Assembly (NCBI GenBank): GCA_964362665.1
Contig: CAYIFB010000005.1
Coordinates: 2,556 to 66,555 of the forward strand
DNA: 64,000 nucleotides
Reading direction: 5' to 3'
Source: an uncultured Gammaproteobacteria bacterium
GTDB taxonomy: Bacteria; Patescibacteriota; Microgenomatia; 2-02-FULL-39-11
Below are positions 44,087-61,022 of this stretch, piece by piece; position 1 is the first letter of the stretch, and each line of letters opens with the position of its first letter. Position numbers and translations under genes: made by a program. The notes under the pieces are model-generated. The model made no database searches. It was not told the DNA's origin and worked only from the letters and a program-made list of their open reading frames with translations.

Positions 44087-45289
44087 ATGGAAATAAAAAT
44101 TTCTAATCCCTTTATCGGCAAAGAGGAAATAAACGCCGTTATCAAAGTGTTAAAAAGCGGAAATTTAGCCAGCGGAAACGTGGTTTCCGAGTTTGAAAGA
44201 GAATTTAAAGAGTATATCGGCGTCAAACATGTTGTTGCAGTATCAAGCGGTACTTCAGCATTACTTATTTCATTACTCGCCCTCGGAATTGGCCCGGGTG
44301 ATGAGGTGATTACTACTGCTTTTACTTTCCGGGCTACGATTGAAACCATTATTTTTTGCGGTGCCCTCCCCAAACTTGTTGATATTGATCCTTCTACCTA
44401 TAACATTAATCCTGATCTCATTGAACAGGCAATTACCAAGAGAACCCGTGCCATTCTCCCAGTCCACCTCTACGGACTCCCTTGTGATATGAATTCCATC
44501 ATGAGAATTGCCAAAAAGCACAATCTGAAAGTCATAGAAGACTGTGCACAGGCGCATGGAGCGTCTATCGCAGCCTCTGAGGTCGGTATGACTTTTTTGC
44601 GCACCTCCCAAACTCCCCCGATGCTATATCGGGGTCGAGGCCGTGGGCGTGCTCAAAAAGCATACCTCCCCGCGGCTGCTGAAGTTTTGCAAAAAGTAGG
44701 CAGTATAGGCGACGCGGGGTGTTTTTCGTTTTACGCTACCAAAAATATGACGACAGGTGAGGGGGGAATGATTACCACCAATAATGATGAATTATTTCAA
44801 AATATACTTCGTATCATAAAACATGAGGGGAAATTAAATATTGATTTATTAGATATACATTTCAGGATGACCGATATCCAGGCAGCGTTAGGACGGGTGC
44901 AATTAAAAAGATTAGACAGACTAAACAGGATAAGAATTAAAAATGCCAATTTTTATAAGCAAAAATTAAGTACGGTGAAAGGTTTGATCTGCCCGAAGGT
45001 GCCGGAAGGCAAAAAACATGTTTTTCATCAGTATACGGTGAAAATCAATGATAATTATTCTCTCTCCCGAGAGATGCTGTTAAAGAAATTAGAACAAGCT
45101 GGAATTCAAGCGAGAATCTATTATCCTCAGCCAATTCATAAATTATCATTATTTACAGGGTTATTCACCGGAAAAAATTTATCCCGGTCAGAACAAGTGG
45201 CCAAAGAGGTTTTATCACTTCCCATACATCCCAAACTTAATATAAAACAATTAAAGTCGATCGTTAACTGCCTTAAAAACGATAAATAA
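44087..45289 (+). CDS. DegT/DnrJ/EryC1-family sugar aminotransferase (WbpE-like), carrying a roughly 45-aa in-frame insertion
   Basis: 'AVSSGTSALLISL', 'AQAHGA ... VGSIGDAGCFSFYATKNMTTGEGG'. Insertion 'SIAASEVGMTFLRTSQTPPMLYRGRGRGRAQKAYLPAAAEVLQK'. A 160-nt block at 44401-44561 is near-identical to 35971-36131. Confidence 0.8.
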   Translation: MEIKISNPFIGKEEINAVIKVLKSGNLASGNVVSEFEREFKEYIGVKHVVAVSSGTSALLISLLALGIGPGDEVITTAFTFRATIETIIFCGALPKLVDIDPSTYNINPDLIEQAITKRTRAILPVHLYGLPCDMNSIMRIAKKHNLKVIEDCAQAHGASIAASEVGMTFLRTSQTPPMLYRGRGRGRAQKAYLPAAAEVLQKVGSIGDAGCFSFYATKNMTTGEGGMITTNNDELFQNILRIIKHEGKLNIDLLDIHFRMTDIQAALGRVQLKRLDRLNRIRIKNANFYKQKLSTVKGLICPKVPEGKKHVFHQYTVKINDNYSLSREMLLKKLEQAGIQARIYYPQPIHKLSLFTGLFTGKNLSRSEQVAKEVLSLPIHPKLNIKQLKSIVNCLKNDK

Positions 45290-47018
45290 CTGCCTGAGGA
45301 TTATTGTAGACAGGTTTTAAAAAGGGATAGACCATCTCTAAGCTCTTTCCTTTGGATTTTTCTTTTTCCTGGACGCTGACGAAGATATATTTGACACGGT
45401 TATTTTTCAGGAAGATTTCCGCTTCCCGTACCGGCATTTTGCCTGTATAAAATCTATCAACCAGACGCTGTTTTTCCTCATAATTGACGGTATTTGATTG
45501 GCCAAAGAAGACGGTATTGCCGGAGTAGGCGGGAATAAAATTGCCGGCGGTGATTTCAGCCAAAACCACATCACTGCGAATTGTGTTATTTTTCAGCCAG
45601 CGTATGCCATCCATCCAGGTTCTCAGAGGATACATGGTTTGGGGAGGATAGGGGACAGCCGGAATATTGGCCCGTACTCTTTGGGTAATGAAATTGGTCT
45701 GCCAGGATATACTAACTTTCATCATAAAGAAATTTAATGCAAGATAACAAATAACAAATAACAGATAACAGAAACAGAAAAAATGCTTTACCGACAAATC
45801 TTTATATTTGAAACTCACGATAAATTCCCAAACTTGTTGGAAAAAGTAAACAGCCAGAAGTCCTAAAGGAATGAAAAGCCCGGTTTGGGTGAAGCGGAGC
45901 GGGCTTTGCTCTTTGATATAGGTAAAAAGTATGGCAAAAAGAAAAGTCATCAAAATCCAAAAAGTGAGAGGATGAAATTTGCTGTCTCTTTTGACAAGTG
46001 AGATGAAAATACCAAAAAGAGCCAGAAAAAAGACAGGACCGGTTCCCAAAAGATATTCCCAAAAAGGAATGAGCATAGGATGGGTCTGGTGGAAAATTAC
46101 CAGAGATGACCAGGGAGGTACGCGGGTGATAAAAAATAAGTAAATTAAAGATGGTGCACTAAGAATTATGAATAATATCAGCTTGCTGAGGTCGGGTAAG
46201 AAATTTGTCGTATCTGCAAGTCGTTCGTCTCGATTGAATAGGGACTCACTCTCCCTTCGGTGCAGATAACGCCAAATTTTTACCCTCCCCGCAAGCTTAA
46301 TGAAGATGATTGTCATAATGATTCCGTAAAGAGTCATTAAACTTGGAGGAAACACTAAGCCTACGGCATTGCCTAAAATTATTAGCGGTATCAATTGTTT
46401 CAATGATAAATTGTTAATTTTTTTTATTACCAACCAATACAGCAGGAAAAACGATCCGACCTGGCCGAATAAGATGTGGGGGATGAAGGTGATTCTTTGC
46501 ACCGCGTCGATATTCGACCACCATTCCATGAACCGGCCGACCTGAAACGCTCCATTATTTTCCATGATCAGCCTGGGAAAACTGCCTGATGAAAGAATTA
46601 TTAAAAAGGCTAAAACCTGCCAGAAAAACTTTTTAAAATATACTTTGGTCAGGAAACAAATCATAATTAAAAGTAGAGGAGACAGAATAATCCTGCCCAA
46701 CTGATAAGCTGAATTAGGACTTAGTCCCATCGTTTTACCAAGTAGTCCTAAAACGACATAAAATTCCTGAATGAGTGATCCCTGGTGTGGTTCGCTCGTG
46801 AAACGCTCCAGGGCAGTCAGGCGTCCTTCAGTGCCCTGTCTGATTTTGGAGAGGTAAAGATTATAATCAGGCCAGTAGAAATTATGTTCCAGAATAAATT
46901 CACGGTTAGGGTCTCCCAGGCTTTTGGACTTCGATAATTCAAAAATCGTGGGATAAAAAGAGATTGCCAAAAAAACGATTATTAGAGAAGTAAAAATGAT
47001 AGTTTTTACTGAATTCAT
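45273..47018 (-). CDS. GT-C-like membrane glycosyltransferase, paralog family member 4
   Basis: 'EHNFYWPDYNLYLSKIRQG', 'RITFIPHILFGQ', C-terminal 'GNFIPAYSGNTVFFGQ...FYTGKMP'. Start set at MNSVKT, because the upstream 28 codons of the longer ORF are a repeat element. A GC-rich segment at 46200-46290 may be another in-frame insertion. Confidence 0.6.
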   Translation of the reverse strand: MNSVKTIIFTSLIIVFLAISFYPTIFELSKSKSLGDPNREFILEHNFYWPDYNLYLSKIRQGTEGRLTALERFTSEPHQGSLIQEFYVVLGLLGKTMGLSPNSAYQLGRIILSPLLLIMICFLTKVYFKKFFWQVLAFLIILSSGSFPRLIMENNGAFQVGRFMEWWSNIDAVQRITFIPHILFGQVGSFFLLYWLVIKKINNLSLKQLIPLIILGNAVGLVFPPSLMTLYGIIMTIIFIKLAGRVKIWRYLHRRESESLFNRDERLADTTNFLPDLSKLILFIILSAPSLIYLFFITRVPPWSSLVIFHQTHPMLIPFWEYLLGTGPVFFLALFGIFISLVKRDSKFHPLTFWILMTFLFAILFTYIKEQSPLRFTQTGLFIPLGLLAVYFFQQVWEFIVSFKYKDLSVKHFFCFCYLLFVICYLALNFFMMKVSISWQTNFITQRVRANIPAVPYPPQTMYPLRTWMDGIRWLKNNTIRSDVVLAEITAGNFIPAYSGNTVFFGQSNTVNYEEKQRLVDRFYTGKMPVREAEIFLKNNRVKYIFVSVQEKEKSKGKSLEMVYPFLKPVYNNPQAVIYRF

Positions 47019-47144
47019 ACGAGATCCTTCGACGCGTTTCGGGACGTACCGTATGGAACATCCCTTCGCTTGCTCAGGATGACATCGCCTTCGGCGAGTC
47101 ACTTGACCATGATAATATTATAGCTTAACATAAGGCACGAATAT

Positions 47145-48179
47145 ATGACTTTTCTTTCAATCATCATACCTGTTTACAATTCTCAAAATTCGATCACCCC
47201 TCTTTTAAATTCCCTGATTTCCGCCAGGAAGGTGAACTTTAAGGAAATTGAACTGATCCTGGTGGACGACGCGTCACAGGATAATTCTTTGAAACTTATA
47301 GAGAAATGGCTTACCTTAAAGGGTGACACCTTTAAAGGTGTGAAGACTTTGAGTCTGAAGAAAAATTCCGGTCCGGCCAAAGCCCGTAATATCGGAGTCA
47401 AATACGCCAAGGGAAAGGTAGTATTATTTCTAGATTCTGATGTAGAAGTTTATAGTAATACTCTTTTTGAAATAATAAGATCCTTTAAAAATGATCCGGA
47501 TCTTCATGCTTTGACAGGGGTCTGGGATAAAAAGCAGAAAGGACATAAATTATTCCAGAAATTCAAAGCCTTGAGAGACTGGAGCTATTGGATTAATGAA
47601 CGCGATCCCCGCAATTATTATTATTTATTTTCGACCCGCATCGCCGCCATCGACAGGCAGTTATTTTTAAGGCTTGGCGGGTTTGATACGACTTATAAAG
47701 CCGCTCTGGTTGAAGATATCGAACTGACTTATAGAATTGCCAAAAGGTATGCGGTGGTTTTCGACCCGAAAGCCATTGTCCGTCATGAATTTGAGGATTT
47801 TGGACCAATTTTCCGGAAATATTTCTGGAGATCATACTACTGGAGCCGGATTTACCGCGAAAGGAAAAAATTTGATCCTGTCGCAACTACCGGTAAGGAA
47901 GCAGTGACCACAATATCGGCAGGAGGCTTGGTAGCAGTATCGGCATTGATGTTATTTAGTTCTTTAAGTCACTTAAATTATTTACAATACGTATTTCAAA
48001 CTACTTTCTACCTGCTACTGATTATTCATCTCTGGGGGGTACGCAAATTTCTCTGGTTTGTCTTTCAGGAAGAGGGAATTATTTTTGCTTTTTATTCTTT
48101 TTTGACAGGTATTGCTTTATACCTGGCGATTCTTTCCGGGGCTGCTTATTCATTGTTGTGGAACAACCGTCGGAATTAA
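47145..48179 (+). CDS. GT2 family glycosyltransferase with C-terminal membrane helices
   Basis: 'LSIIIPVYNSQNSI', 'LILVDDASQDNS', 'PAKARNIGVKYAKG', 'FLDSDVEV' (DxD). Confidence 0.7.
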   Translation: MTFLSIIIPVYNSQNSITPLLNSLISARKVNFKEIELILVDDASQDNSLKLIEKWLTLKGDTFKGVKTLSLKKNSGPAKARNIGVKYAKGKVVLFLDSDVEVYSNTLFEIIRSFKNDPDLHALTGVWDKKQKGHKLFQKFKALRDWSYWINERDPRNYYYLFSTRIAAIDRQLFLRLGGFDTTYKAALVEDIELTYRIAKRYAVVFDPKAIVRHEFEDFGPIFRKYFWRSYYWSRIYRERKKFDPVATTGKEAVTTISAGGLVAVSALMLFSSLSHLNYLQYVFQTTFYLLLIIHLWGVRKFLWFVFQEEGIIFAFYSFLTGIALYLAILSGAAYSLLWNNRRN

Positions 48180-50147
48180 TTTTTGGGAAGGAAGAAGATT
48201 TAGGGCCGACGGAGATGAGTTTTCCAGATCGAGGGTGGGATTTTCAATTACCTTAACTTTTTTCAACTTCAGACTTCCGGTGGCAGTTATGGCTTCAGGA
48301 AATTGGGAGAGTTCATCTTCAATCTTTTTCATGTCACCCGAATCAAGTGGAATGAGGGATGCGGCGGTTTGAAGCTCTTTATAAGCTTCATCATACTTTT
48401 TTTGAGAGCGAAGCGCGACAGCCAGATCAAAGTGGGCATTAGCCAGGTCGGGTTTGAGATAGATTGCCTGGCGAAAGAGCATTTCCGCATCCGCATATTT
48501 TTTCAGATTAAGGTAAAGTACGCCTAAAGCAATCCTGTTTTTGGGAGACAGTGGATCCAGGGTGATTTTCTGCTGCTGGCTTTGGACGGCGAAGTTATCT
48601 GCGCCTGCTGCGTATCCGATGATATTGGAATAGGTTTTAGTCAGGTTGTCCCAGTTGATAACATTTGTGCGGAAAAGATTGACTGAAACACGGGCTTCAT
48701 CAATTGCCTGCTGGACCAGTCGGGGAATATTTTGTTGATCTTCAGCTGTGGGGTTCTTTTTAGATGCCAGAGCATTGGCCAGGGCCAAATTGGTTTGGGA
48801 GAGGGCATTGTGGTAGCGGTCGATATAGGGGTTAAGTTTTATGGCTTGCCTTTGGTAATTATAGGCAAGTGTTCCCTGATTATTGATCAGAGAATCCAAT
48901 GATTTTTTAAAATTCATTTCGGCGAAGTATGCTTTTCCTCCAAAAAAAATAACTAGAGAAAATATTATCAGAGAGGGTAAAATTAAGAGATATTTTAAAA
49001 ATCCCAGACTGGAAAAGTCTATTTCAAATGACGGTTTTTTACTCCCGGAAACAGCTAAAAGTATGATGGCCGTCGTCAAAAGTACCATACTGGTGGGAAG
49101 GATTATCTGCAGAAAAAGTATGGCGACTGCCATAATTTTGAAGGAATAAAAATTAGCGTTTTCATGATTTTTTATCAGAGCCTCTCCAAACAATTGTTTC
49201 ACTGCTTTAATAATAATTAAGACATACATTAAACCTGCAAATAATCCGTATTCAGTCAAAAGATTCAGAAGAAATGATGAGGAAGAGGTAAAAACTATAT
49301 TCCAGACAGGACTGCTGTTTATCGTCATGGGCTTGGAAAGTGTGAAAGCGGTAATAAAATTTGCAGGGCCAATTCCCAAGGCAAGCGTCCTGATGTTTTT
49401 TAAGGTTTCGAGCATTATAGACCAGCCGAAATTAAGGGGCAGAAGAATAGGCGACTGGTTGGTAGCAAGATGTATGGAAGTGATAATTGTAGCCGTTGTG
49501 ATGAGAAGTGCCGCGCTACCATAAAAAAGATAAAGATAACCCCAGGACCCTGATTGCATTATTTGGTTTTTTTCTTCACCATCTGAAATGAAATATTTTA
49601 AAAGGCAATAGATGGGATGAATCCCTAAAACGGCGAGAAATGTAACAGTTGAGAGGAGGCTTCCGGCCGGCGTTTGGATACTTTTGGGTAAAATTCCCAA
49701 ATAAAGAAAAATAAGATATAAAGATAATAAGACAGCATCAACCAAAAGAATCTGCATAAGGGTCGATTTATCATTTTCATCGACGGCATACGTCAAAAAA
49801 AGATAAAACAAAAAACCTTCAACAATAGTTGTAGTTGCAAGCGGGGTAGTGAGCGAGATAGCAAGATTTGGGGATTGGAAGAGGGTTGAGGCGATGACAA
49901 AGCCGGTGAGAAGCGAAAAGGGATATAAATAAATGTCTTTGATGACCATTAATTTCTGCTCTGTGATTATTCTGACCGACATCAGGATAAAGCCGACTGA
50001 GATAAATAAAGCCAGAAGAGCCATTTTGTTGTACTCATAATATTCAGGCACGATCTGAAGAAAAAATAAGGGGAAGAGAAAAACAAAGAGGAAAGTGGAA
50101 TATTTAATTATTTTTTTGATTGACATATATTTCGCAATGTCTATCAC
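48150..50147 (-). CDS. O-antigen ligase / Wzy_C-domain polytopic membrane protein with C-terminal TPR repeats (PglL/WaaL-like oligosaccharide transferase or polymerase)
   Basis: About 12 TM helices with a large loop of the Wzy_C type. The C-terminal roughly 250 aa hold TPR-like repeats ('YADAEMLFRQAIYLKPDLANAHFDLAVALRSQKKYDEAYKELQTA'). Confidence 0.6.
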   Translation of the reverse strand: MIDIAKYMSIKKIIKYSTFLFVFLFPLFFLQIVPEYYEYNKMALLALFISVGFILMSVRIITEQKLMVIKDIYLYPFSLLTGFVIASTLFQSPNLAISLTTPLATTTIVEGFLFYLFLTYAVDENDKSTLMQILLVDAVLLSLYLIFLYLGILPKSIQTPAGSLLSTVTFLAVLGIHPIYCLLKYFISDGEEKNQIMQSGSWGYLYLFYGSAALLITTATIITSIHLATNQSPILLPLNFGWSIMLETLKNIRTLALGIGPANFITAFTLSKPMTINSSPVWNIVFTSSSSFLLNLLTEYGLFAGLMYVLIIIKAVKQLFGEALIKNHENANFYSFKIMAVAILFLQIILPTSMVLLTTAIILLAVSGSKKPSFEIDFSSLGFLKYLLILPSLIIFSLVIFFGGKAYFAEMNFKKSLDSLINNQGTLAYNYQRQAIKLNPYIDRYHNALSQTNLALANALASKKNPTAEDQQNIPRLVQQAIDEARVSVNLFRTNVINWDNLTKTYSNIIGYAAGADNFAVQSQQQKITLDPLSPKNRIALGVLYLNLKKYADAEMLFRQAIYLKPDLANAHFDLAVALRSQKKYDEAYKELQTAASLIPLDSGDMKKIEDELSQFPEAITATGSLKLKKVKVIENPTLDLENSSPSALNLLPSQKLIPTVVPQQ

Positions 50148-50234
50148 GGGTCCTGCCGCAAGTTTCCCTCCCGCCAGTACTCGACTCGGATTCTCGTTTG
50201 CGTGCTGTCGGGATCCCTTCCTCTTGCGTCACCC
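50148..50234 (+). repeat. family A repeat copy 5, immediately upstream of the start of 48150-50147
   Basis: gggtcctgccgcaagtttccctcccgccagtactcgactcggattctcgtttgcgtgctgtcgggatcccttcctcttgcgtcaccc. Confidence 0.65.
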
Positions 50235-50352
50235 GCTTATCCTTAATTATTATCTAAAACGACGGGATTCTCAAGGAGGGGATTTCAGGTATCAGGTGTC
50301 AGGTATCAGGTGTCAGAACTAAAACCTATAACCTAAAACCTGCAACCTTACA

Positions 50353-51438
50353 TTACTGTTCGAAACAGTAAAGACGAAGCGATGAGTTGCAGGCGCTTGA
50401 GGTAAAATTTGTCCAATCGTTGGTATCAAAGTTGGCATTTTTCCCGACCCTTGATGTCCTGTTGGAAGCATTTGAAGTAAAACTCGTACAGGTAGTAGTG
50501 CCTCCTGTGTTGAGAATATTTCCGGCAATATTGGTGTTTGTCCAGACATTGGAATTTATTGTTGTATTAATCTGGCTTAAATTTATTGGAGCACCTAGAA
50601 CTCCATCTGTCAGGTCAGTCCAGTCGTCAGCGATTTTGGTAGTTTGATTAATTAAAAGATAAGGATCTAAAGAATGGGTCAGTCTGGAAGCAGCGCTCAC
50701 CGTAGTACTTGAAAGCCAGGCTTTCCATGTGCCTCCCAGCGAGGCATTGTCGGCAAGTGTTTGGCACTTGGTATCCGCACCGGATAAACCGCCCAGATTT
50801 CCGTTATAAGTTGTGGAGGAGATAAAGACTCTTTTGGCATGAAGACTACAGGCGCCGTTTCCGTTACAAGCATTGTAACCGCCTCCGCATTCTGAAAAAA
50901 TATCCAGTCCGTCTGCGATATTGACGATATTCCCGTTTGCGCATTGATTACAGGCACCGGAAGGGTTGGTGTTGTCCGGACAATACAGACCGTCATTAAT
51001 ATCCGGAGTAGTAAGAGAGAGCATGACGTTTCTGCGACGGGCATTATCCGGAGGAGAACTGGAAATGATCTGTGTCGTGTTTGATGGTAGTCCGTCTGAA
51101 TCTGAATCTATCATCCAGAGGGGAGTTCCAATATATAATGATCCACCGGTAAAGATAACAATTGATCCACCTGTCTGAATAGATAATTTTCCCATAGCAA
51201 ATTTTTGTGTGACTCCGACTGTCAAGGTGCCTGTTTTACTTACGGCGAGGACAGCGGTATTGGTTGTGTTAGTACCGGCATCCACACCATTGACATTTCC
51301 ACTAAAGGTGCAACTGGTGGAAATAGTCAAATCTCCGGATGGGGCAACATTACTACAATCAGCGGCGAAGACCGATTTAGAACGCGAAGAATAAAGAATA
51401 AAGAATAGTAAAACTATTGAAAGTAATTTCTTTTTCAA
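50353..51438 (-). CDS. secreted cysteine-containing protein, a stand-alone copy of the C-terminal roughly 330-aa module of the 1430-aa protein
   Basis: Signal peptide 'MKKKLLSIVLLFFILYSSRSKSVFA'. Shares an ordered set of motifs with the C-terminus of 55999-60291 ('WMIDSDSDGLP', 'KVF..TT', 'GADT.CQ', 'AWLS.TT', 'RLT', 'WTNT', 'TC', 'L.LYC.(E/Q)Q'). Confidence 0.55.
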   Translation of the reverse strand: MKKKLLSIVLLFFILYSSRSKSVFAADCSNVAPSGDLTISTSCTFSGNVNGVDAGTNTTNTAVLAVSKTGTLTVGVTQKFAMGKLSIQTGGSIVIFTGGSLYIGTPLWMIDSDSDGLPSNTTQIISSSPPDNARRRNVMLSLTTPDINDGLYCPDNTNPSGACNQCANGNIVNIADGLDIFSECGGGYNACNGNGACSLHAKRVFISSTTYNGNLGGLSGADTKCQTLADNASLGGTWKAWLSSTTVSAASRLTHSLDPYLLINQTTKIADDWTDLTDGVLGAPINLSQINTTINSNVWTNTNIAGNILNTGGTTTCTSFTSNASNRTSRVGKNANFDTNDWTNFTSSACNSSLRLYCFEQ

Positions 51439-51443
51439 AGAGG

Positions 51444-52004
51444 TTATCGTAAATTAATTTCTAATTGCGACGTCTGGGTTCCGCTGGCGGCTTCAAAATT
51501 AATTTTATATTTACTGTCCGTCGTATCCGATACCTGCCAAGTGCCTTCCCAAGTGCCGAAAATGTCCGATCCCTGAGTTCTCGACAGGGGAACGGTAGCC
51601 GACTTATTATCAGTAGTTACAACAGCATTAATACTGTTAATGCTTGTATCAAAATAAGCCGTGACGCTTATTTTTTGGGTATCGCCGACAAAGGGTCCGT
51701 AGGGGTCGAGATACCCTCTGGTAAATTTAGGTCCCGGGCGGTTGCCTCCGCCGACGGTGAAGCTTTTCATACTGTGCGGTAAAGGAATAGGAGATGGTGA
51801 CGGAAATAAAATCGGAGTCGAGGTGACGATTGATCGTGAGCTGCGTCGCGGAGAATCCAATCTGACACGGTTAAAATCTTGAATCTGAGGAATTGAGGGA
51901 AACAAAAAACTGAAAGTTTCAGGAATACGGTAAATTATAACTAAAATAATGATTACCGCAATTAATCCAATAACCGTAAATTTCTTTTTTCTCGACGAAA
52001 GCAT
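51444..52004 (-). CDS. small N-terminally anchored protein, paralog of 60310-60870
   Basis: N-terminal TM anchor. Pro-rich linker 'PSPSPIPLP'. C-terminal domain shares 'VTTDNKS...GTWEGTWQV.D....Y..NFEA..G' with the other copy. Confidence 0.45.
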   Translation of the reverse strand: MLSSRKKKFTVIGLIAVIIILVIIYRIPETFSFLFPSIPQIQDFNRVRLDSPRRSSRSIVTSTPILFPSPSPIPLPHSMKSFTVGGGNRPGPKFTRGYLDPYGPFVGDTQKISVTAYFDTSINSINAVVTTDNKSATVPLSRTQGSDIFGTWEGTWQVSDTTDSKYKINFEAASGTQTSQLEINLR

Positions 52005-52054
52005 AATTTACTTATATTGAATCACATTTCTGATAAATTCTCAAGAAAAAAAGA

Positions 52055-55000
52055 TTATTGCAGTACGTCCTGAATTTCCAGAGAGGTTAAATCATTGGTG
52101 TTGGCGCCTGGAACAGGAGAACTGCTGTAAGGAATATAGTTCAAGCTGGAAGAGTCTATTCTGTAATTTGACGAAGTGTTGTTATTGTAGAATTGAACTT
52201 GAATTTTATTGTAATCTTTAAGAGCCGTCACAACTGTATTTTTATTAACCCAGCCGTGGGCTATTTTGGTAAAGTTTTTTGAAGATGTTGTCTTTGTACC
52301 GTCATTATTAAAAAGCGTAATCATCATACCTGTTTTGCCAGCTAAGATGTTTGAGTCAAGATAATTCATGACATTAAAAGTAAGCGTATTACCTGCATGG
52401 CCGGCAAAGACAATAATTTGGGTAATTTTTTCGGAATTGAGTATTGAACTTGACGGAGAAAATTTGAAAGCATACTTACCGTCATAAACTTTTGAGGAAT
52501 CCAGTTTATCTCTGGCATCCAGTTTTTTGGCGGTCCAGAGGTCAGGCAGTAAATTAAAGTCAAGATCGATATCGAATGAAGAATTCAAAATCACCGGAGG
52601 ACTGACAGTTGGAGTCGGTGTTGGAGTCGGGGTAACCGTCGGAGTGGGAGACGGGGTATAAGTTGGAGTAAGAGTTACCGTTGGCGTCGGTGTGTTTGTC
52701 GGGGTTACCGTCAAGGTGACGGTAGGAGTTGGTGTAAAGGTTGGTGTTGGTGTTCGTGTAGGAGTTACAGTGGGCGTACTGGTTGGAGTAGTCGTGGGAG
52801 TAGGCGTATTTGTAGGAGTTGCTGTTGGAGTTATGGTAGGAGTTGGTGTCCTGGTCGGGGTTACCGAAGGAGTTGGCGTACTTGTCGGCGTGGAGGTAGG
52901 AGTTGGTGTAGAGGTTGGAGTTGGTGTCCTGGTCGGGGTTACCGAAGGAGTTGGCGTACTTGTCGGAGTCAATGTTACCGTCGGAGTGATTGTCGGTGTT
53001 ATTGTTGGAGTCGGTGTTCTGGTTGGGGTAACCGTAGGAGAAGGCGTACTAGTTGGCGTTAGAGTCGCCGTCGGAGTAATAGTTGGTGTTAAGGAAGGCG
53101 TTGGTGTTCTGGTTGGCCTAGACGTTGGAGAAGGAGTAGAAGTAATGGTAGGAGAAGGAATAGTCGGGTAAAAATAAAGCCCGCCGTCGGTATAATTTAC
53201 AAAGTTACCAGAAGTGACGATATTTCCCTGTGATATATCCGCAAAAACCTGGTCAAAAGAATTGGCGGAAATCTGGGTTTCTTTATTTATCCCTAGTTCA
53301 AAACTGTAAACATCGTCATTGCCGTTTCTGTAGTCTATCCAAATCATCTGATTGCCCGAAATTCTGGGATTTATCTGGCTGCAGGGGTTGGAGGTGATTT
53401 GAGTTGTGGCTGACGAGTTCAGATCGTACATATAAATATCGGAGTTTGTACCGCCCCAGACACAGGAAGTATTGCCGATATTCCTTTCGTCAGTCCAGAT
53501 TATTTTAGTCCCATCAATCGCCGGAGTGTACTGGTTGGCTGACTCGCTGGTGATTTGCGTTTCGATTCCTGAAGTTAAATTTTTCATATAAATATCAGGG
53601 TTACCGTTGCGGTTATCCTGCCAGACAATATTGTCACCTGAGACTTGAGGATTGGTCTGGTCATGGGATTCAGTTGAAACCTGTTGAATTGGACAATTGC
53701 CGCTTACTGGATCAAAAATACACGTATAGATGTCATTATTACCGCTTGAATTATCCTGCCAGACTATTCGAGTGCCTGAAACTGACGGAAAAAGATTAGA
53801 GTCGGAAGACACCGGAATTTTTTTCTCCGGACACGCTCCTCCAACAGGATCATACAGACAAGCGTAGACATCCCATTTACTGTTCCTGAAATCCTGATAG
53901 GTGATATAGTTTCCGGAAATCCGCGGATAAAGATTGACGGTAGAGCTGTATGCTAACCATCTATTACTACAGATGTTGCCATTACTTATTGTACAAACCT
54001 CCAGTTGTCCACTGGGACTAGGATCATAAGGATCATCGTAAACCCAGACAAAATTAATACCGGAAACTCCAAAATAATACTCGGGTCCCAAGACATCAAA
54101 TATCTGATATGACTGATAGCTTTCAATAGTTACCTGTACCACATCAGTAAAGATATGGTTGGTGTTGTCCGTCGCTTCCAGCTTTAGCAGGTAATCTCCC
54201 GGGGGTAGGGCGTGATAATCCCAGGTAGTTAATTTAGTAAACGTTGATACAGGGGTAAAGACCGGAGAATTTATGGGAGTCCAGACGGAGGGGTTAGTGA
54301 AAGGAGCATAAAAAAGCTGGTACTGTTTAAAATCTGTTCCAAATGCCCAGCCTAAAATATCCGTCTGAAGGTTTTGCAGGCTTAAGCCGAGCCGAAATCC
54401 CGGAAAAAAGAGTGCTGCATCCAAAGCGGAATTCATACTGACTGCCTTAAATGCATTAACTCTTCCCGCTCCGGTCTTCTGGTCAAAACCGGCAATATCT
54501 ACATCATCTGCAGAGGATTTGAGTATCTGCCTGACATTTTCCCCGGAAAGTGCGGGATTATGGGCTTTAACGAGCGCTGCAACACCTGATACATACGCGG
54601 CTGACATTGAGGTACTTCCTAAACGCAAATAATTTGTTCCAACAATCAGATTAGGATCACAGACGCCAATGTAGCAGGTGGATGTTTTTAGGGATAGAAT
54701 GTTATTTTGGGGTAAATAGTTTGGCGGTGGATTTGTTGTGCCGGAGCCTGGCGCACTAAGGTCAAGCTGGACGCCGTAATTGGAAAAAGAGGACAGTTGG
54801 TCATTTTGATCCAGAGACGCAACCACAACCGGTTTTTGCTGACCCCACGAGGCACGCACCTGGTTTTGCGGGGCATAATACCTGACATCATCACTGAAGT
54901 TGCCGGCGGCAAAAACTACCACAGACCCGGCGTTGATGGCATTGGAAATTGCCGTCTGCAGCAAGTTATAGTAATAACAGCGTGAGTTGCAGCTCCAGCT

Positions 55001-55966
55001 GTTATTGATTACTTTAGCGCCTTTAGTGACTGCTCGATTAATGGCGTCTGCCGCCATAGCTAAGGTGCCCGAACCATCATAATCAAATGCTTTAAAAGCT
55101 ATAATTTTCGATTCAGGAGCCACCCCGATAACACCGAGATTATTATTTCCCATGGCCGCAATAATTCCGGCGACGTGCGTACCATGACCATTATCGTCTT
55201 TGACATCACTCGTACCAATAAATAAATTATATCCACCCGGGGCAACTTGAGGACATGTATTGGCATCGACTTGGCTTAGAGTACATCCTCCAAATTCGGG
55301 ATGAGTATAATCGATTCCTGTGTCAATTGTGGCCACCAGTACGCTGTTACCACTTCCATCTTTGCCTTTCGTGATATCCCAGGCCGGTTCCAGATTCATT
55401 TTACTTGTCTTTAGAGCCCAGAGATCGTCGTATCCCTGTCCCCAGCTGTTAGACGAGGAAAAGTAAGGGTCATTGGGGGTAAAAGAAGTTTTTAAAATAT
55501 AGTTTGGCTGGGCATATTCGACGACTCCTGATTTCAGTAAGCTATTGATGATTTCCGGAACAGGCACGTCTGATGAGGAAAAAACAATTTTATAGATTTT
55601 ACTTAAATCAGTACCGGTTGGGGATTTAGTTTTAAAAACATTACCAAATGATTTTATGGGATACCTCTTATGGAGGTTAGAGATGGACGCGGGAATTGAA
55701 TTTGCATCCAAATCTGTCAGGGTGACATTGTCTTTTAGTAAATCTTTGCCAACACTGTCGCTTTTGACCGACAAGCCTTTCTGGTCGTCTTTCAGTTTGA
55801 GGATAACTTCACCGTGGACAAATTCTTCGCTTTTAACTTCTTTATTTTTTTTATTAGTCTGACTGTTTCCTTGGATAATCTGCGGATGGAGGAAAAAAAT
55901 AAAGACGGTTAAGAAAGAGATTATCAGGACGAGGTAACTTCGTAATTTAGTCTTTAACACATTCAA
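52055..55966 (-). CDS. giant secreted subtilisin-family (S8) serine protease with PD40-type beta-propeller repeats, a roughly 210-aa Pro/Thr-rich linker and a C-terminal domain of unknown function
   Basis: Signal peptide. Catalytic-triad blocks '[15 protein letters not shown]' (Asp), '[15 protein letters not shown]' (His), '[16 protein letters not shown]' (Ser). Five repeats of '(S/D)G..I(V/T/I)(W/Y)QD.RNGN.DIY...L' (PD40-like). Linker '[13 protein letters not shown]...' repeated many times. Confidence 0.8.
52600..53160 (-). repeat. tandem low-complexity (ACN-CCN)n coding repeat encoding the Pro/Thr linker
   Basis: Plus strand reads (ggt/agt/tgt...gg(a/t/c)gt)n, giving the antisense VGVGV shadow ORF 52692-53171. 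The sense strand encodes the TPT/PTP repeat. Confidence 0.7.
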
Positions 55967-55998
55967 AAGGCGATTAACGAAAAGGATTATAAACTACT

Positions 55999-58900
55999 TT
56001 ATTGCTGGATACAATAGAGTGCGAGAGTTGCGTTATTACAATAGGCAGATTGAGCTGGAAGTTGAGTCCAAGTCGATGTAGCGCTATCGTTTGTTCCGAT
56101 TTTGCCAGTATTAGAAGATGTCCCGTCTGTCCAATTTTGACAGGTTCCGGCAAGGGTATTATCATTAATTGTTCCGGTTGAGGTTGTATTTGTCCAAATA
56201 TTTTTTTGAGTAGTGATCCCTGCTGCGCTTTTACTGATGGGATTGACCAAACTACCGCTAGAGAATCCCGCAAAACTATTGGCGACTACGGTTCCATCCA
56301 CCAAAGTGTACTTGTAAGGTCCGGGAGTCAATCGGGCAGGAGCAGGAGTTGTAGTATTAGACAACCATGCTCTATAAGTGCCATATAATCCGGCAGCATT
56401 TGCTTGATTTTGGCAGAAAGTATCAGCTCCGCCTACCCCAGCAAAATTTCCATCATGGTTAGTAGTCGTATAAAATACTTTTCTAGGTGTACAGTCTCTA
56501 TTGGCAGTGGCTAAAGCCGGATCGCAGTCCCGTGTAAACCAGCCGTTAGTAGCTAGTTGAGAAGGTTTTTTATAACCGGGCGGAACCGTAATCATGATAG
56601 TTGGCGTCAGGCTATCAGGGTAGTTGTCTCCGTCAGCATCAGGGTAGACAGGATAGCCTTGCTGGATTTTAGAATTAGTAGCGTGAACAATCGATCCATT
56701 GATAATAATTTTTTGGCCAGGTTCCCAGACAAAAGTATAATTGGAAGGCATCGTAAAAGTGGTACCGCTGCCGATAGTAAGATTTCCGCCCGAAACAAAA
56801 TCAATTCCAGTGGCCGGAGTACAACTCCAGGTAAAATTGACATTTCCAGTGCCGGTATTACAGATTCCGGCAGTTCCGGTTGGCATTGGGGTGGTAATAA
56901 TAGAAGGAGCGGGATTCACAGGAAGAGATGTTCCTGTAGAATTTTGGGCTCTGACACGATAATAGTATGTGGTTCCCGGTAGAAGATAATCTACTGCTAC
57001 GGCCATAGTGGGTGCGGGTATAAACATTCCCGGCGGGGTGTTATCAGCTGTTTCTCCAAATGAGGGAATATATTGGTTAAAGGTTGAATCACGGGCAACT
57101 TCCACATAATATCCTGTCGGTCCAGGATTTGAAGACCAGTTTATCTGAAAGTATTTATAGGTGACGTTTGAAGCTGCGTTGAGGGTCGGAGTAGAACTGT
57201 AGGTTGTAACAGTGCCGGGAGATGTATAACTACTAACAGAACCCGCAGAGTTGACAGATGCCACTTTATAGTAATAAGTAGTTCCAGCAGAAACTCCCGT
57301 ATTCACGGAAGCAAAAGCGGTACCAACAGAGCCAGGATTATAGCTTGAGAGGGGTGAGGAAAAATCAGAGTTGTCGTCGACCATGACATTATAGGTTGAG
57401 GCGCCTGTCATAGAATCATATGAAAAGAAAAAACCGCTATCAGCGATGTTGAAAGACTGCAACGAAACATTGGTCGGAGTAGTCGGAGCAGTAAGGACTG
57501 TAACTTTATTGGATAGTGCACTATCACCGCTGGCAAATGTAGCTTTCAGGCAATAATAATATGTAGTATTGGCGCTTAAACCATTGGTGATGGAATATTG
57601 GGTAACATTACCGATATTATAAAGATTGCAGGTTCCTCCACCACAATTAGATGAAGTAATTGGAGATGTACTGCAATCAGAATTGGTCGTGACGCTTAAT
57701 TTATAGCTGGTAGCCCCGGTCACAGCCGCCCAACTACCGGTGAAACTGTTTTCATTGATAGTATTTGGTTTGATGGAAACTGCCGTAAGTGCCCAACCCT
57801 GAGCACCGCTTGAGGGAATAGTCCAAGACATCGTAACAGAATTAGCGCCTGATTGTGTGCTTCCCCTGCCATTCCATGCATTGTCAGAAGAAGTACTCCA
57901 CTGGAGTGTTTGACTAGCGCCTTTAGTCGCATCTGTCGTAGTATTCCAAAAAGTTAAAGCATCGACTACGATTTCTCCCGGGGCGCTTGTAACATTTACC
58001 GAAGCAGAGGTCACCCCAGATCCTCCAAAATTAGAAGCAAAAATTCCTAGAGGAGTTATTTGATTTGCCCCAGTAAAACTTATTGCGCCGGTTTGCATCC
58101 AGTCATTGCCTCCGGGGGTAACCACTATAGTATTTGTTCCGGTAGGAGGATTTACTAAATACCATAATTCCGAGCGAGAAAAATCACCGGATCCAGCCTG
58201 CACCGCCCCGCTTTTGGTTAGTGCAACTCCATTGTATGTCACACTGGTGACAGAGTTATATGATCTTTTACTCACTCCAACTACCAATAAGCGGTTTACT
58301 CCTGATACTGTATGAGACCAACTGAGACTTGCTACATTTGCTCCGGCTGAAGATGAAGTGGTGTCGATTGCCAAAGTTGAGGTTGCAGAATTGGCAACGG
58401 GAGTTGCAAGAGTGGTGACTGTAATTGTGCTAGAGTTTACACCAGTTCCACCACCCACAGAATCGGTTGCCCTTACTCTGTAATAATAGGTAGTGTTGGC
58501 TGATAAACCTGTGACAGAGTAGGTAGTGACATTACCTACAGCCTTAGCGTTACATGACCCTCCTCCACAGCCTGTTGCTACAAACGAGGTAAAGCCGCTG
58601 TCTGTAGCCACATCCAGCGTATACCCATCTGCACCGCTTCCTGACTGGGTATTCCAGTTGGCAGAGAAGCTTGTATCAATTACATTTGTTGCGGCGGTCG
58701 CTGCAACTTGAGCCGGTTGATAAGTGATAGTAAGGAATGGTTTATATGCGGCATTAGTATTATCCGCCGTGGCAAGGTTGATATCTTCACGTCCGGCTGG
58801 AGCAGTGTTATTAGTATCTTTATTGCTACTGAGGCAATAATAAGTAGATCCGCCATAACTGGTATCTTTAGTAATCCATGACGTACTTAAATTAGCGCTT

Positions 58901-60291
58901 GCGTATTGAGTATTGATGACTACATTACTTGAGTTTTTCCAACTATTATCGCTAGTGGCTGCCAGACACCCGTCGTAAGCCGCCTCCATATTTGAGGTAG
59001 TGAGAGGATCATTGGCGTTCCAGTTGTAATCGATTACGTTGGTAGTAAAATCTACAGCGCTGTTATCAGTTATCATTACCATTGTCAGGTTGACCTGATT
59101 TATGACCGCGCTATCAGGAATAGAGCTGGTGGTAAATTCTAAAAAGGATCGAAGGACAGTATAGGTGACTGAAACTAATTTCTGTCCTACAGTTCCCGCT
59201 ACTTGAGTTGTCCCGACAGCATCTGCCGTATTTCTAGCACCGGTATATGTCAAACCACTTCCACTGACGGATCCATCTGCGGTGGTTCCGGCAAAGTCCG
59301 GATCGATCGTCACCGGATAGCTTGTCCCTAACTTTTTCAGCCAACTGACAGGAACAGAAGTATAGAGATACCAAGTATTCCCTTCTTTTATCAAGAATCT
59401 TCTTATGGATGCAGAATTATCTTTAGCGTCATGTCCTTCCGGGAAAGGAAAGATGGTGGTTTTACCGTTGTCTGTTAGGACAAGAGAATCTTTTGTTGTA
59501 AGCTCGTATTTAGCATTATTAGCATTTAGTGATTGGCCATTTAAAGTAAGATTGGAGGTCGTGGAAATCGTAGCCTTTAAAGTGAGGAGATCATCCAGAG
59601 ATGCATTATCAACAAGAGACGGATCTTCCAGGACTAAATCTTCACGAGCTCCAAGGTCATAGGCATTAATGATAAGTTTGACGCGATCACCATCCAAGGT
59701 AAGAAGATTATCAGTCTTATTTACTTTAGGATTATCAAGATTGTTTATCCTTATAAAAGCGTTGTTGATAGGATTATAAATTCCCAGTGTCGGAGCTCCA
59801 CTTTCCAGAAGAGAGTCACCGTTCTTTTGGGTTATTGCTCCATTCTTTGACAAATATAGTCCTACTCCATTTTTGGTCTGGTAGTCGTATCTGGGATCTG
59901 TACTTTTCTCCAGTGAATAATCAATCGGTTGCCAAATACCAGGTGCAACCTCGTAGTTCTGTTTAAAGCCGGTAAAAAGAGCAGTCACAGTACCGTCAGC
60001 ATTTTTAAAATGGGTGGAATAGGCATCTTTTGATACTACCTCTTTATCCCGAAGATCCATCTTGTCTGCCTGAGTATCAATCCAACGCACGCCTGTTTTG
60101 GGGCCGATGGAGTTATTGGCATAGACTTTTTGGGAGGATAATTTTGGCAGTACCAGGTAATAAGCACCAATTAAAAGTCCGCCAATACTGGAGACAAACA
60201 ACAAAGAACAGATAATCCTTCGATAAAACTCAGGACAGGCAGGTAACAGGGAAAATCTTGACTTGAAATTACGCCGGGCAGATTTTTTCAT
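55999..60291 (-). CDS. 1430-aa N-terminally anchored surface protein with four fibronectin type III-like repeats and the C-terminal Cys-containing module shared with 50353-51438
   Basis: N-terminal TM 'LLFVSSIGGLLIGAYYLVL'. Four repeats ending in 'TTYYY(R/C/K)V(R/K)A' with upstream 'W....GA..Y' (FN3 pattern). C-terminal 'RKVFYTTT...GADTFCQ...AWLSNTT...RLT...WTNT...TCQNWT...LALYCIQQ'. Confidence 0.7.
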   Translation of the reverse strand: MKKSARRNFKSRFSLLPACPEFYRRIICSLLFVSSIGGLLIGAYYLVLPKLSSQKVYANNSIGPKTGVRWIDTQADKMDLRDKEVVSKDAYSTHFKNADGTVTALFTGFKQNYEVAPGIWQPIDYSLEKSTDPRYDYQTKNGVGLYLSKNGAITQKNGDSLLESGAPTLGIYNPINNAFIRINNLDNPKVNKTDNLLTLDGDRVKLIINAYDLGAREDLVLEDPSLVDNASLDDLLTLKATISTTSNLTLNGQSLNANNAKYELTTKDSLVLTDNGKTTIFPFPEGHDAKDNSASIRRFLIKEGNTWYLYTSVPVSWLKKLGTSYPVTIDPDFAGTTADGSVSGSGLTYTGARNTADAVGTTQVAGTVGQKLVSVTYTVLRSFLEFTTSSIPDSAVINQVNLTMVMITDNSAVDFTTNVIDYNWNANDPLTTSNMEAAYDGCLAATSDNSWKNSSNVVINTQYASANLSTSWITKDTSYGGSTYYCLSSNKDTNNTAPAGREDINLATADNTNAAYKPFLTITYQPAQVAATAATNVIDTSFSANWNTQSGSGADGYTLDVATDSGFTSFVATGCGGGSCNAKAVGNVTTYSVTGLSANTTYYYRVRATDSVGGGTGVNSSTITVTTLATPVANSATSTLAIDTTSSSAGANVASLSWSHTVSGVNRLLVVGVSKRSYNSVTSVTYNGVALTKSGAVQAGSGDFSRSELWYLVNPPTGTNTIVVTPGGNDWMQTGAISFTGANQITPLGIFASNFGGSGVTSASVNVTSAPGEIVVDALTFWNTTTDATKGASQTLQWSTSSDNAWNGRGSTQSGANSVTMSWTIPSSGAQGWALTAVSIKPNTINENSFTGSWAAVTGATSYKLSVTTNSDCSTSPITSSNCGGGTCNLYNIGNVTQYSITNGLSANTTYYYCLKATFASGDSALSNKVTVLTAPTTPTNVSLQSFNIADSGFFFSYDSMTGASTYNVMVDDNSDFSSPLSSYNPGSVGTAFASVNTGVSAGTTYYYKVASVNSAGSVSSYTSPGTVTTYSSTPTLNAASNVTYKYFQINWSSNPGPTGYYVEVARDSTFNQYIPSFGETADNTPPGMFIPAPTMAVAVDYLLPGTTYYYRVRAQNSTGTSLPVNPAPSIITTPMPTGTAGICNTGTGNVNFTWSCTPATGIDFVSGGNLTIGSGTTFTMPSNYTFVWEPGQKIIINGSIVHATNSKIQQGYPVYPDADGDNYPDSLTPTIMITVPPGYKKPSQLATNGWFTRDCDPALATANRDCTPRKVFYTTTNHDGNFAGVGGADTFCQNQANAAGLYGTYRAWLSNTTTPAPARLTPGPYKYTLVDGTVVANSFAGFSSGSLVNPISKSAAGITTQKNIWTNTTSTGTINDNTLAGTCQNWTDGTSSNTGKIGTNDSATSTWTQLPAQSAYCNNATLALYCIQQ

Positions 60292-60309
60292 TTTTAATTT
60301 TCACGTTTT

Positions 60310-60870: not shown

Positions 60871-60946
60871 AAAAAAGATAATATCTCTTAAATTTTAGTG
60901 TATAAAAATAGATAGAAGTTTGTCAAGCGCATTTAATTTATTATCC

Positions 60947-61015
60947 ACCCCCGGTACTATGCTTACTTTGTTTCGTGGTTTACATCCACGCAAACAAAGA
61001 GCGCAAGTACGGGGC
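60947..61015 (-). promoter_or_regulatory. roughly 69-nt near-perfect nested palindrome between the fibre-like gene stop and the small anchored gene start (terminator, attenuator or protein-binding site)
   Basis: ccccggtact...agtacgggg outer stem enclosing ctttgtttcgtgg / ccacgcaaacaaag inner stem. Sits in a 150-nt intergenic gap within an otherwise co-directional gene block. Confidence 0.4.
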
Positions 61016-61022
61016 AAGCAGT

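Follow-up and report, generated by a model that had tools for sequence, protein, structure and literature searches.

Locus and gene order

We analysed a 64,000-nucleotide stretch of DNA, hereafter the window (assembly GCA_964362665.1, contig CAYIFB010000005.1, positions 2,556 to 66,555), and focused on a minus-strand gene at 48150–50147 whose 665-amino-acid product, hereafter the target, joins a membrane domain of O-antigen-ligase fold to a C-terminal tetratricopeptide repeat (TPR) domain. The gene is a real open reading frame (ORF) in the ORF list; its public call is 658 amino acids long with an ATG start at 50126, a 100%-identical public protein (P0001) comes from Candidatus Gottesmanbacteria, and a query with the exact sequence of the protein encoded in the window gave no record. 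The best protein matches of the window are from Candidatus Gottesmanbacteria (Microgenomates, Candidate Phyla Radiation (CPR)/Patescibacteria). Comparison of related loci tentatively points to the target family as O-glycosyltransferases of surface filament proteins.

The target gene converges with a plus-strand GT2 glycosyltransferase gene (47145–48179; 344 amino acids; PF00535, 4.5e-29), whose product carries two C-terminal transmembrane helices at residues 253 and 311, and the 3′ ends of the two genes overlap by 30 nucleotides (48150–48179). The GT2 gene is followed by a minus-strand gene for a polytopic membrane protein (45273–47102), listed as an ORF of 609 amino acids and publicly called at 565. 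On the other side, the order of transcription on the minus strand is a 1430-residue protein, an S8 subtilase, a 186-residue protein, a 361-residue protein, a gap of 205 nucleotides and the target. Being on the minus strand, the target gene is therefore the last of this run. The initial annotation had placed it directly upstream of genes for proline/threonine-rich (PT-rich) proteins; it lies instead downstream of the PT-rich protease, with the genes for the 186- and 361-residue proteins and the 205-nucleotide gap between them. Within this gap lies the region's best promoter-like match (50274–50246), the number of such matches being not above that in shuffled controls. Just upstream of this site, a direct repeat CTGA[CT]ACCTGA occurs in about four copies at approximately 50295–50335 (minus strand).

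Fold, topology and family of the target

The AlphaFold2 (AF2) model of the full-length target reached a predicted local distance difference test score (pLDDT) of 92.3 and a predicted template modelling score (pTM) of 0.90, and that of the membrane domain (residues 1–435) reached 92.6 and 0.91. Based on the model, Foldseek and column conservation, the membrane domain was delimited to residues 1–421 (48885–50147, minus strand), with 11 transmembrane helices, the N-terminus inside and all conserved motifs on the outer face. These motifs comprise loop 1 (D/E35-x-Y-E/D38-x-N-K41), N94, TPAG162, P351 and the Wzy_C-like outer loop at residues 230–301 (49245–49460, minus strand), which was located by profile alignment to 9rmk_A and by the PF04932 span in homologs and follows the pattern LP..W..E..K..GxGP.NF..F..K....N....W...F.SSSS...L.TE.G. 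The TPR domain covers residues ~425–623 (48279–48875, minus strand) and is followed by a disordered tail; it was recognised by helical repeats in the AF2 model and by Pfam TPR_1/2/8 matches above threshold at residues ~514–607, thereby bearing out the TPR tail described in the initial annotation. The Wzy_C loop is known to be periplasmic, and the model places four more membrane passes after the corresponding loop of the target, so the TPR domain is predicted to be external.

The initial annotation had named the target a Wzy_C protein, a description that holds at the level of remote homology but not as a direct match. PF04932 (Wzy_C) did not match the full target at E ≤ 0.01 or the membrane domain at E ≤ 10, and the Pfam and NCBIfam scans of the target returned TPR-type models only. 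Among 74 full-length homologs, 13 matched this profile (best 1.4e-10). Four of them were checked: in each the match spanned profile positions 2–148 of 149, and two of the four exceeded the gathering cutoff of 31.7 bits. Full-length profile and Foldseek searches of the PDB were swamped by TPR matches and were rerun with the membrane domain alone. A profile built from 30 membrane domains retrieved a single enzyme among PDB sequences, namely, the 610-residue oligosaccharyltransferase 9rmk_A (E 2.8e-5); the other matches at E ≤ 10 were four opsins aligned over one transmembrane stretch and were treated as spurious. This protein appears to be PglL of Neisseria meningitidis, because its numbering reproduces residues Q178, N180, R298, P313, G316, G318, H349, H400, E404 and P406 (PMC3643930). 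Foldseek with the membrane domain ranked WaaL first (7tpg_B, probability 1.00, TM-scores 0.45/0.48) and FtsW second (probability 0.94), and ArnT was not among the matches listed. The family profile found no WaaL chain in the PDB at E ≤ 10, and its hhalign comparison with WaaL of Escherichia coli K-12 was negative. A comparison with PglL and WaaL, proposed in the initial annotation, yielded a PglL-like enzyme as the only PDB relative by sequence and WaaL as the best fold match, but neither common catalytic residues nor detectable homology to E. coli WaaL. The target is a divergent membrane protein of the O-antigen-ligase/PglL/Wzy_C fold class, and it is connected to Wzy_C by remote homology only.

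The target family contains 1,853 cluster representatives at E ≤ 1e-30 and 6,592 at 1e-10. Its top 150 members are 590–720 amino acids long, except for two short and probably partial sequences (351 and 425) and one of 830. Public databases name them only 'hypothetical' or 'TPR protein', and some sources label homologs 'PilF'; one of ten further representatives was named ('TPR repeat protein'), and the cluster names carried no functional or organism information. Named close homologs are all from Patescibacteria, mostly Gottesmanbacteria. We found no paper that ties this family to pili or glycosylation.

Residues at the putative active site

In WaaL (7TPG), undecaprenyl diphosphate (Und-PP) is bound by two Arg residues (R191 and R265) and the acceptor is activated by a His (H313); the polymerases of clan GT-C1 and the SEDS proteins keep one or two Arg, together with Asp or Glu at the His position (PMC10920833). 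The alignment between the target and PglL was unambiguous over approximately 70 residues, with a spacing from GxG to the His position of 30 residues in the target and 31 in PglL, and of 11 in both from there to E.G. His349 of PglL, equivalent to H338 of E. coli WaaL, aligns with Ser290, which is Ser in 58 of the 74 homologs; His occupies this column once, in the most distant homolog (P0105). Arg298 of PglL, equivalent to R288 of WaaL, aligns with Leu238 in a column that is basic in none of the 74 homologs. The target loop at residues 230–301 contains no His at all, and the R191/R265/H313 triad of 7TPG has no counterpart at the aligned target positions. G316/G318 and P406 of PglL are kept as G258/G260 and P351, and Q178, N180, H400 and E404 are not conserved in the target family.

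A different polar set is conserved on the outer face. K41, K/R272 and N277 are present in all 74 homologs, and N94, E247 and K250 are nearly invariant. Loop 1 also contains a conserved acidic pair, D/E35 and E/D38, which may be compared with the DDX motif of TfpW, a protein compared here by description only. E299 is invariant in the clade of the window (24/24), in which position 285 is hydrophobic and position 295 is Asn or Thr; most homologs with less than ~38% identity have R285 and H/E295 instead, and E299 lies one turn further on the same helix. Counted along the helix rather than from a structural superposition, E299 lies one to two turns past Ser290, the position of the ligase His. Judged by these columns, the switch between clades suggests that the catalytic constellation has changed position and not that the enzyme is inactive.

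Conserved partners of the target

Gene context was compared over 37 related loci, including several duplicates, drawn from both genomes and metagenomes; an alignment of 30 sequences proved too diverse for finding loci, and one of 14 sequences was used. A GT2 ortholog (59–88% identity) was present in all 23 loci in which the target homolog was at least 35% identical and the contig reached far enough. It usually directly adjoins the target homolog, often with overlapping 3′ ends, and an ortholog of the 609-residue protein (44–59% identity) follows GT2 in every locus where the contig continues. The robust unit is therefore the trio of target, GT2 and 609-residue protein. Overlaps of 4–39 nucleotides between the 3′ ends of target homolog and GT2 also occur in loci L003, L006, L011, L025 and L027.

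The subfamily of the 609-residue protein was classed as Gottesmanbacteria-specific; its named members all come from Gottesmanbacteria or Patescibacteria, and its first outer loop contains an invariant Asp. None of its members matched Pfam, its profile matched nothing in the PDB, and hhalign comparisons with a PMT_2 protein and with the target family were negative. Five paralogs of this type, of ~540–610 amino acids and 22–35% identity, lie in the window at 8108–9841 (+), 9830–11509 (−), 26114–27733 (+), 39824–41635 (−) and 45273–47102 (−). They may represent an unrecognised GT-C-like family that is paired with small GT2 genes.

Linkage to GT2 is lost when target identity falls to 33% and below. 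In a distant clade (29–34% identity; L020, L040, L041 and L042), the target homolog is repeatedly found beside LysM-Peptidase_M23 and rho genes, and in L041 two N_methyl pilin genes lie 2–3 kb from it. A second divergent target paralog (26–32% identity) or a TPR-only fragment was observed a few genes upstream of the main copy in four loci (L001 1909–3840, L034 4011–5849, L016 6400–7545 and L021 2359–3465).

Pilins and fibre proteins upstream of target homologs

In clade A, defined as the Gottesmanbacteria loci with a target homolog of 40–50% identity, a type IV pilin-like gene lies directly upstream of the target homolog and on the same strand in all 13 distinct loci with upstream sequence. 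The gap between the two genes is mostly below 60 nucleotides. The pilins are 235–289 amino acids long and homologous to one another, and they carry the prepilin motif G|FTL(I/M)E; PF07963 was above threshold in seven of ten scanned, and T2SSG matches were weak. A further pilin of this type lies 3 kb upstream of the target homolog in L016. In at least 12 of these 14 pilins, a linker rich in Gly, Pro, Thr and Ser, for example GGGGGGTPSPTAGPSPTAIPTGVPTTPP, separates the pilin globule from a C-terminal domain with 8–10 Cys.

The window has no such gene. Neither a prepilin motif in six frames nor a pilin homolog was found in it, and tblastn of the 14 pilins against the window gave low-complexity PT matches only; a hidden pilin was rejected on these grounds. 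The 186-residue neighbours were also rejected as pilins, as they have no prepilin G/E motif.

Orthologs that are 82–85% identical to the target have either a homolog of the window's 974-residue fibre protein directly upstream (L006/L022/L038; gap of 17 nucleotides, 74% identity) or an IS200-type Y1 transposase (L036/L037). Weaker homologs of the 974-residue protein lie upstream of the target homolog in L014, L015, L016, L034, L011 and L001, and at 29–35% target identity the upstream gene often encodes a giant protein of 930–3063 amino acids, some of them related to the 974-residue protein. In the window, this fibre-like surface protein is encoded at 61023–63947 (−), and the listed ORF of 974 amino acids may be incomplete at the N-terminus. 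The giant fibre proteins share the C-terminus ...FNWW[IL][IV]N (61023–63947 (−), L006 3915–6803, L038 4486–7374, L014 527–4882, L015 5288–9631 and L041 1251–5876). Intein-like sequence is present in the L006/L038 copy (Pfam Intein_splicing, weak); Phage_int_SAM_1 is matched, together with PA14, by the L041 copy, and the L014/L015 copies start with a similar-looking N-terminal sequence.

Because the fibre gene abuts the target in the closest relatives, the block of approximately 10.9 kb at 50148–61022 is best read as a lineage-specific insertion between the two, and the Y1 transposase upstream of the target in another relative marks this flank as a recombination hot spot. The block holds five genes for secreted proteins, arranged as two similar modules, each with a 186-residue anchored protein and a large protein ending in DUF1554; the second module also holds the S8 protease. 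The window's 361-residue, first 186-residue and subtilase genes lie beside no target homolog in the related loci. A homolog of the second 186-residue protein directly follows the target homolog in L026, with a weak homolog of the 1430-residue protein downstream; this was the sole occurrence.

Secreted proteins of the inserted block

The gene immediately upstream of the target (50353–51438, −) encodes the secreted 361-residue protein, whose C-terminal domain is DUF1554/endostatin-like and which lacks a PT linker. It is preceded by the first 186-residue protein (51444–52004, −), a transmembrane-anchored protein with a short PT-rich stretch and a paralog of the second (60310–60870, −), which is likewise anchored with a short PT stretch. 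The secreted subtilase of 1303 amino acids (52055–55966, −; PF00082, 1.7e-51; TIGR04275 six times) contains beta-propeller repeats as well as a PT linker and a C-terminal domain. The gene of the 1430-residue surface protein (55999–60291, −), with Fn3 repeats and a DUF1554 C-terminus, starts just beyond the span flagged in the initial annotation (48150–55966).

That annotation attributed long PT linkers to several of these products, and this applies to the subtilase only. Its Pro/Thr/Ser linker covers residues 932–1127 (52586–53173, −), that is, 196 residues with up to 82% Pro plus Thr over 40 residues, and the PT stretches of the 186-residue proteins and the 974-residue protein measure roughly 15–25 residues. 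The adjacency of target and protease is confined to the lineage of the window, being missing in the 82–85%-identical orthologs, and the link between the two is a coincidental, local accident. It may be speculated that the subtilase linker could serve as a substrate if the enzyme were promiscuous like PglL, and its composition resembles that of the pilin linkers.

The C-terminal domains of the 361- and 1430-residue proteins match DUF1554 and the Leptospira endostatin-like proteins LenA/LenB (NF047482, 8e-8; Pfam Endostatin weak), and domains resembling these outer-membrane proteins are surprising for a CPR bacterium. The subtilase joins Peptidase_S8, six beta-propeller repeats of the Methanosarcina type (TIGR04275, 2e-56), the PT linker and an unassigned C-terminal domain of ~175 residues.

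Glycan biosynthesis genes of the window

The window is largely occupied by a glycan island of approximately 45 kb, with the target at its edge. The island encodes epimerases/dehydratases, two DegT aminotransferases, a GFO/IDH/MocA oxidoreductase, hexapeptide and GNAT acetyltransferases, a SIS isomerase, an HldE-like kinase/nucleotidyltransferase, methyltransferases and thiamine pyrophosphate (TPP) enzymes. One set is compatible with heptose synthesis (SIS/GmhA-like isomerase, HldE-like kinase/adenylyltransferase and epimerase) and another with a 2,3-diacetamido sugar (GFO/IDH/MocA oxidoreductase, DegT aminotransferases and hexapeptide acetyltransferase). Two PMT_2 proteins (15716–16978 and 37429–39171) and four GT2 enzymes of 232–344 amino acids are also present; three of the latter (232–260 amino acids) have no transmembrane segment, and the membrane-anchored one is the 344-residue partner of the target.

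The initial annotation saw here the enzymology for undecaprenyl-linked glycans; nucleotide-sugar enzymes compatible with heptose and diacetamido sugars are present, but an Und-PP assembly line was not detected. Among window ORFs of at least 150 amino acids, Pfam detected no initiating phosphoglycosyltransferase, Wzx flippase or ABC exporter; a chain-length regulator was not found among these ORFs either, and Wzx flippase, initiating transferase and chain-length regulator were also missing beside the orthologs. Streptococci O-glycosylate disordered, Ser/Thr-rich linkers of extracytoplasmic proteins with a GT-A undecaprenyl-phosphate-sugar synthase and a GT-C enzyme (bioRxiv 10.1101/2024.05.05.592596). 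The island layout favours extracytoplasmic glycosylation from polyprenyl-monophosphate sugars, by a GT2 synthase and a polytopic transferase, over the en-bloc transfer of an Und-PP-linked oligosaccharide. Because of this layout and the missing diphosphate-binding Arg residues, the target may use a monophosphate donor, or the 609-residue protein may be the actual transferase.

Several sugar genes of the island are unusual. The HldE-like protein (27817–29343, +) has a reversed domain order, with a cytidylyltransferase-like N-terminus and a PfkB kinase C-terminus, and lies near the SIS/GmhA-like isomerase gene (30419–31039, +). A TPP-dependent acetolactate-synthase-like enzyme (18485–20254, +) and an E1 alpha/beta dehydrogenase pair (31050–33090, +) inside the island hint at the synthesis of a branched or otherwise unusual sugar.

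Proposed function and alternative explanations

With a probability of roughly 45%, we favour the explanation that the target family consists of O-antigen-ligase-fold enzymes that glycosylate surface filament proteins on low-complexity linkers. The target would transfer a sugar or glycan linked to polyprenyl phosphate onto Ser/Thr residues in Gly/Pro/Thr-rich linkers at the outer face of the cytoplasmic membrane, with the TPR domain docking the acceptor in its unfolded state. For most orthologous loci, this acceptor would be the product of the adjoining upstream type IV pilin gene; in the lineage of the window, the giant fibre protein would be a candidate, as might other PT-linker proteins, the S8 protease among them. 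The membrane-anchored GT2 and the polytopic protein of ~600 amino acids would make, flip or extend the lipid-linked sugar, and the invariant K41, N94, E247, K250, K272, N277 and E299 would form the active site in place of the canonical His and Arg.

The pilin-then-target order in clade A makes filament glycosylation the most economical explanation, as pilin-specific O-oligosaccharyltransferases have the same arrangement. In Acinetobacter, pglS (pglL-ComP) follows comP. In Pseudomonas aeruginosa, tfpO and tfpW directly follow pilA (bioRxiv 10.1101/2020.04.19.049825), and 'pilin' is the genetic context of most listed PglL homologs (PMC3643930). The suggestion of PglL-like protein O-glycosylation in the initial annotation is therefore partly supported at the family level, by pilin synteny and fold, although the acceptor is probably another one and the active site departs from the canonical form; the adjacency to a PT-rich protease on which it was based is not conserved, the His and Arg are replaced, and the window has no pilin.

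Several results weigh against the favoured explanation. The active-site His and Arg of PglL are replaced by Ser290 and Leu238, its Q178, N180, H400 and E404 are not conserved, and the target itself matches neither PF04932 nor, in the Pfam scan, PF15864 (PglL_A). The conserved partners are a GT2 and an unclassified membrane protein rather than an Und-PP-glycan pathway, whose initiating transferase, flippase and exporter were not detected in the window, and homologs at 29–33% identity occur in housekeeping or LysM-M23/Rho contexts without GT2. The island is rich in pairs of GT2 and GT-C-like enzymes, and such enzymes glycosylate Ser/Thr-rich linkers in other monoderms. The upstream flank varies even among 82–85%-identical orthologs, the protease neighbours the target in a single lineage, and the window encodes no pilin. 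The putative glycosylation activity of the family is deduced from sequence, model and synteny. The case for the window itself is thus weaker than that for the family, given the variable flank, the absent pilin and the accidental position of the subtilase. We regard as rather unlikely the stronger proposition that this is the first O-glycosylation system for pilins and fibre proteins of Patescibacteria/CPR, a TfpO–TfpW hybrid in which a large and hitherto unrecognised ligase-fold branch with the K41/E247/K250/K272/N277/E299 set would, in concert with its GT2 and ~600-residue partners, perhaps use monophosphate donors.

An alternative that retains an enzymatic role is that the target polymerises a cell-envelope glycopolymer, as Wzy or TuaE does, or ligates it to peptidoglycan or a lipid anchor like a GT121 enzyme, with GT2 and the 609-residue protein building or decorating the polymer and pilin adjacency reflecting co-regulated surface biogenesis. 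The fold class that the target shares with WaaL and SEDS proteins fits this role; clan GT-C1 groups O-antigen ligases with inverting polymerases, and for GT121 members of Gram-positives a role in the ligation of capsule to peptidoglycan has been put forward (PMC10920833). The target gene also lies at the edge of the glycan island, its two membrane-associated partners are kept more strictly than any protein acceptor, and its distant homologs adjoin LysM-M23 cell-wall hydrolases. This role is plausible, if less likely than filament glycosylation, considering that neither flippase, chain-length regulator nor initiating transferase was found in the window, the target has Ser and a hydrophobic residue where the polymerases of the clan have Asp/Glu and Arg, and the external TPR domain and tight pilin coupling (mostly <60 nucleotides) are hallmarks of the protein-directed enzymes TfpO, TfpW and WsfB.

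CPR/Patescibacteria are regarded as monoderm and without lipopolysaccharide (LPS), and in actinobacteria Pmt/Ppm1 glycosylate proteins via polyprenyl-monophosphate sugars. It could be argued that the PT linkers of the window, if glycosylated at all, are modified from such sugars by pairs of island GT2 and GT-C-type enzymes (PMT_2 or 609-like), the target not being the linker enzyme. The two PMT_2 proteins, four GT2s and five polytopic paralogs of ~540–610 amino acids are candidates for such pairs, the target has none of the Arg residues that bind the diphosphate of Und-PP in WaaL, and GtrB/PgtC2 and PgfS/PgfM1 of streptococci provide a precedent. However, no sequence link between the 609-residue family and GT-C could be established, none of these genes adjoins a pilin as the target homolog does, and this proposal covers the linkers only and leaves the function of the target aside; we consider it rather unlikely.

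A non-catalytic scaffold or assembly factor for pili or fibres, with a degenerate ligase fold and TPR repeats for protein contacts, would agree with the missing His and Arg, with the frequency of TPR proteins among pilus assembly factors, with the 'PilF' labels and with the fact that genes after pilA can be non-enzymatic, such as TfpY (PMC11841053), but it is very unlikely, considering that the polar set on the outer face (K41, N94, E247, K250, K/R272, N277 and, in 24/24 of the close clade, E299) is typical of a conserved active site, that R285 and H/E295 of the distant clade on the same helix suggest catalytic residues moved rather than lost, and that linkage to a glycosyltransferase gene is strict. 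A WaaL function was rejected on account of the different catalytic residues and the monoderm, LPS-free CPR envelope.

Few surface machines are conserved in CPR/Patescibacteria, type IV pili being among them; these pili are needed for episymbiotic attachment and motility, including attachment to the host, and serve as phage receptors. Glycans on these attachment organs and phage receptors, if confirmed, would therefore bear on host range and phage evasion. The one CPR pilus study found to deal with glycosylation gives in-silico predictions of glycosites only and no enzyme (PMC12206443). The target family offers a concrete and testable candidate for pilin glycosylation: it is large (at least 1,853 representatives), follows linker-bearing pilins and lies beside a dedicated GT2. 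A pilin-linked O-glycosyltransferase candidate of ligase fold in CPR, with a non-canonical active site and new partners, would be the new element here. If the favoured explanation is true, an O-antigen-ligase fold that works without the His and Arg considered essential in WaaL and PglL would widen the mechanistic range of GT-C_B, and the family could supply new tools for O-glycosylation. For the window itself the message is more modest, as the protease link is coincidental and the pilin absent.

Comparison with known systems

Among characterised enzymes, TfpO/PilO of P. aeruginosa group I and PglS/PglL-ComP share with the target family the Wzy_C fold class, a catalytic loop on the outer face and a gene position right after the pilin (13/13 in clade A). 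TfpO and PglS are Gram-negative enzymes that transfer Und-PP-linked O-antigen or capsule units to one defined Ser; in the target family, by contrast, other residues occupy the His and Arg positions, a Gly/Pro/Thr linker is the likely acceptor, the fixed partners are a GT2 and an unclassified membrane protein, and the organism is a monoderm CPR bacterium. Unlike the TfpO and PglS loci, the window has no pilin gene.

PglL of N. meningitidis, a general O-oligosaccharyltransferase, has in common with the target the motif frame LP..W...GxG..F...N....F.....L..E.G, including G316/G318, and P406. It acts on low-complexity acceptors rich in Ser, Ala and Pro and is unlinked to its acceptors in Neisseria. 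Its R298, H349, Q178, N180, H400 and E404 are unmatched in the target, its PglL_A domain was not detected there, and overall identity is very low. WaaL (7TPG; CAZy GT121) is the best structural match (probability 1.00, TM-score ~0.46), and both proteins are polytopic with a long outer loop; WaaL, however, has 12 transmembrane helices, lacks a TPR domain and acts on lipid A-core, an acceptor that CPR do not have, whereas the target has 11 helices and a TPR domain.

Two further systems, compared by description, are linked to TPR motifs as the target is, and TfpW comes very close to it in architecture and gene context. TfpW, the arabinosyltransferase of group IV pilins of P. aeruginosa, has ~650 amino acids, a cytoplasmic N-terminus, 11 transmembrane helices, a large external C-terminal TPR domain and a gene directly after pilA; it uses polyprenyl-monophosphate arabinose and modifies several Ser/Thr residues (bioRxiv 10.1101/2020.04.19.049825). 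The published model of TfpW was based on ArnT (GT-C), and TfpW is described as differing in structure from TfpO (bioRxiv 10.1101/2020.04.19.049825; PMC11841053), whereas the best fold match of the target is WaaL. WsfB of Paenibacillus and WsaB of Geobacillus are monoderm systems that combine Wzy_C with TPR (C-terminal in WsfB, in the separate WsaA in Geobacillus) and attach a lipid-linked glycan to a surface protein, and WsfB and PglL are both described as carrying TPR motifs (PMC2943079). WsfB and WsaB differ from the target in that they lie inside complete slg clusters and have S-layer proteins as acceptors.

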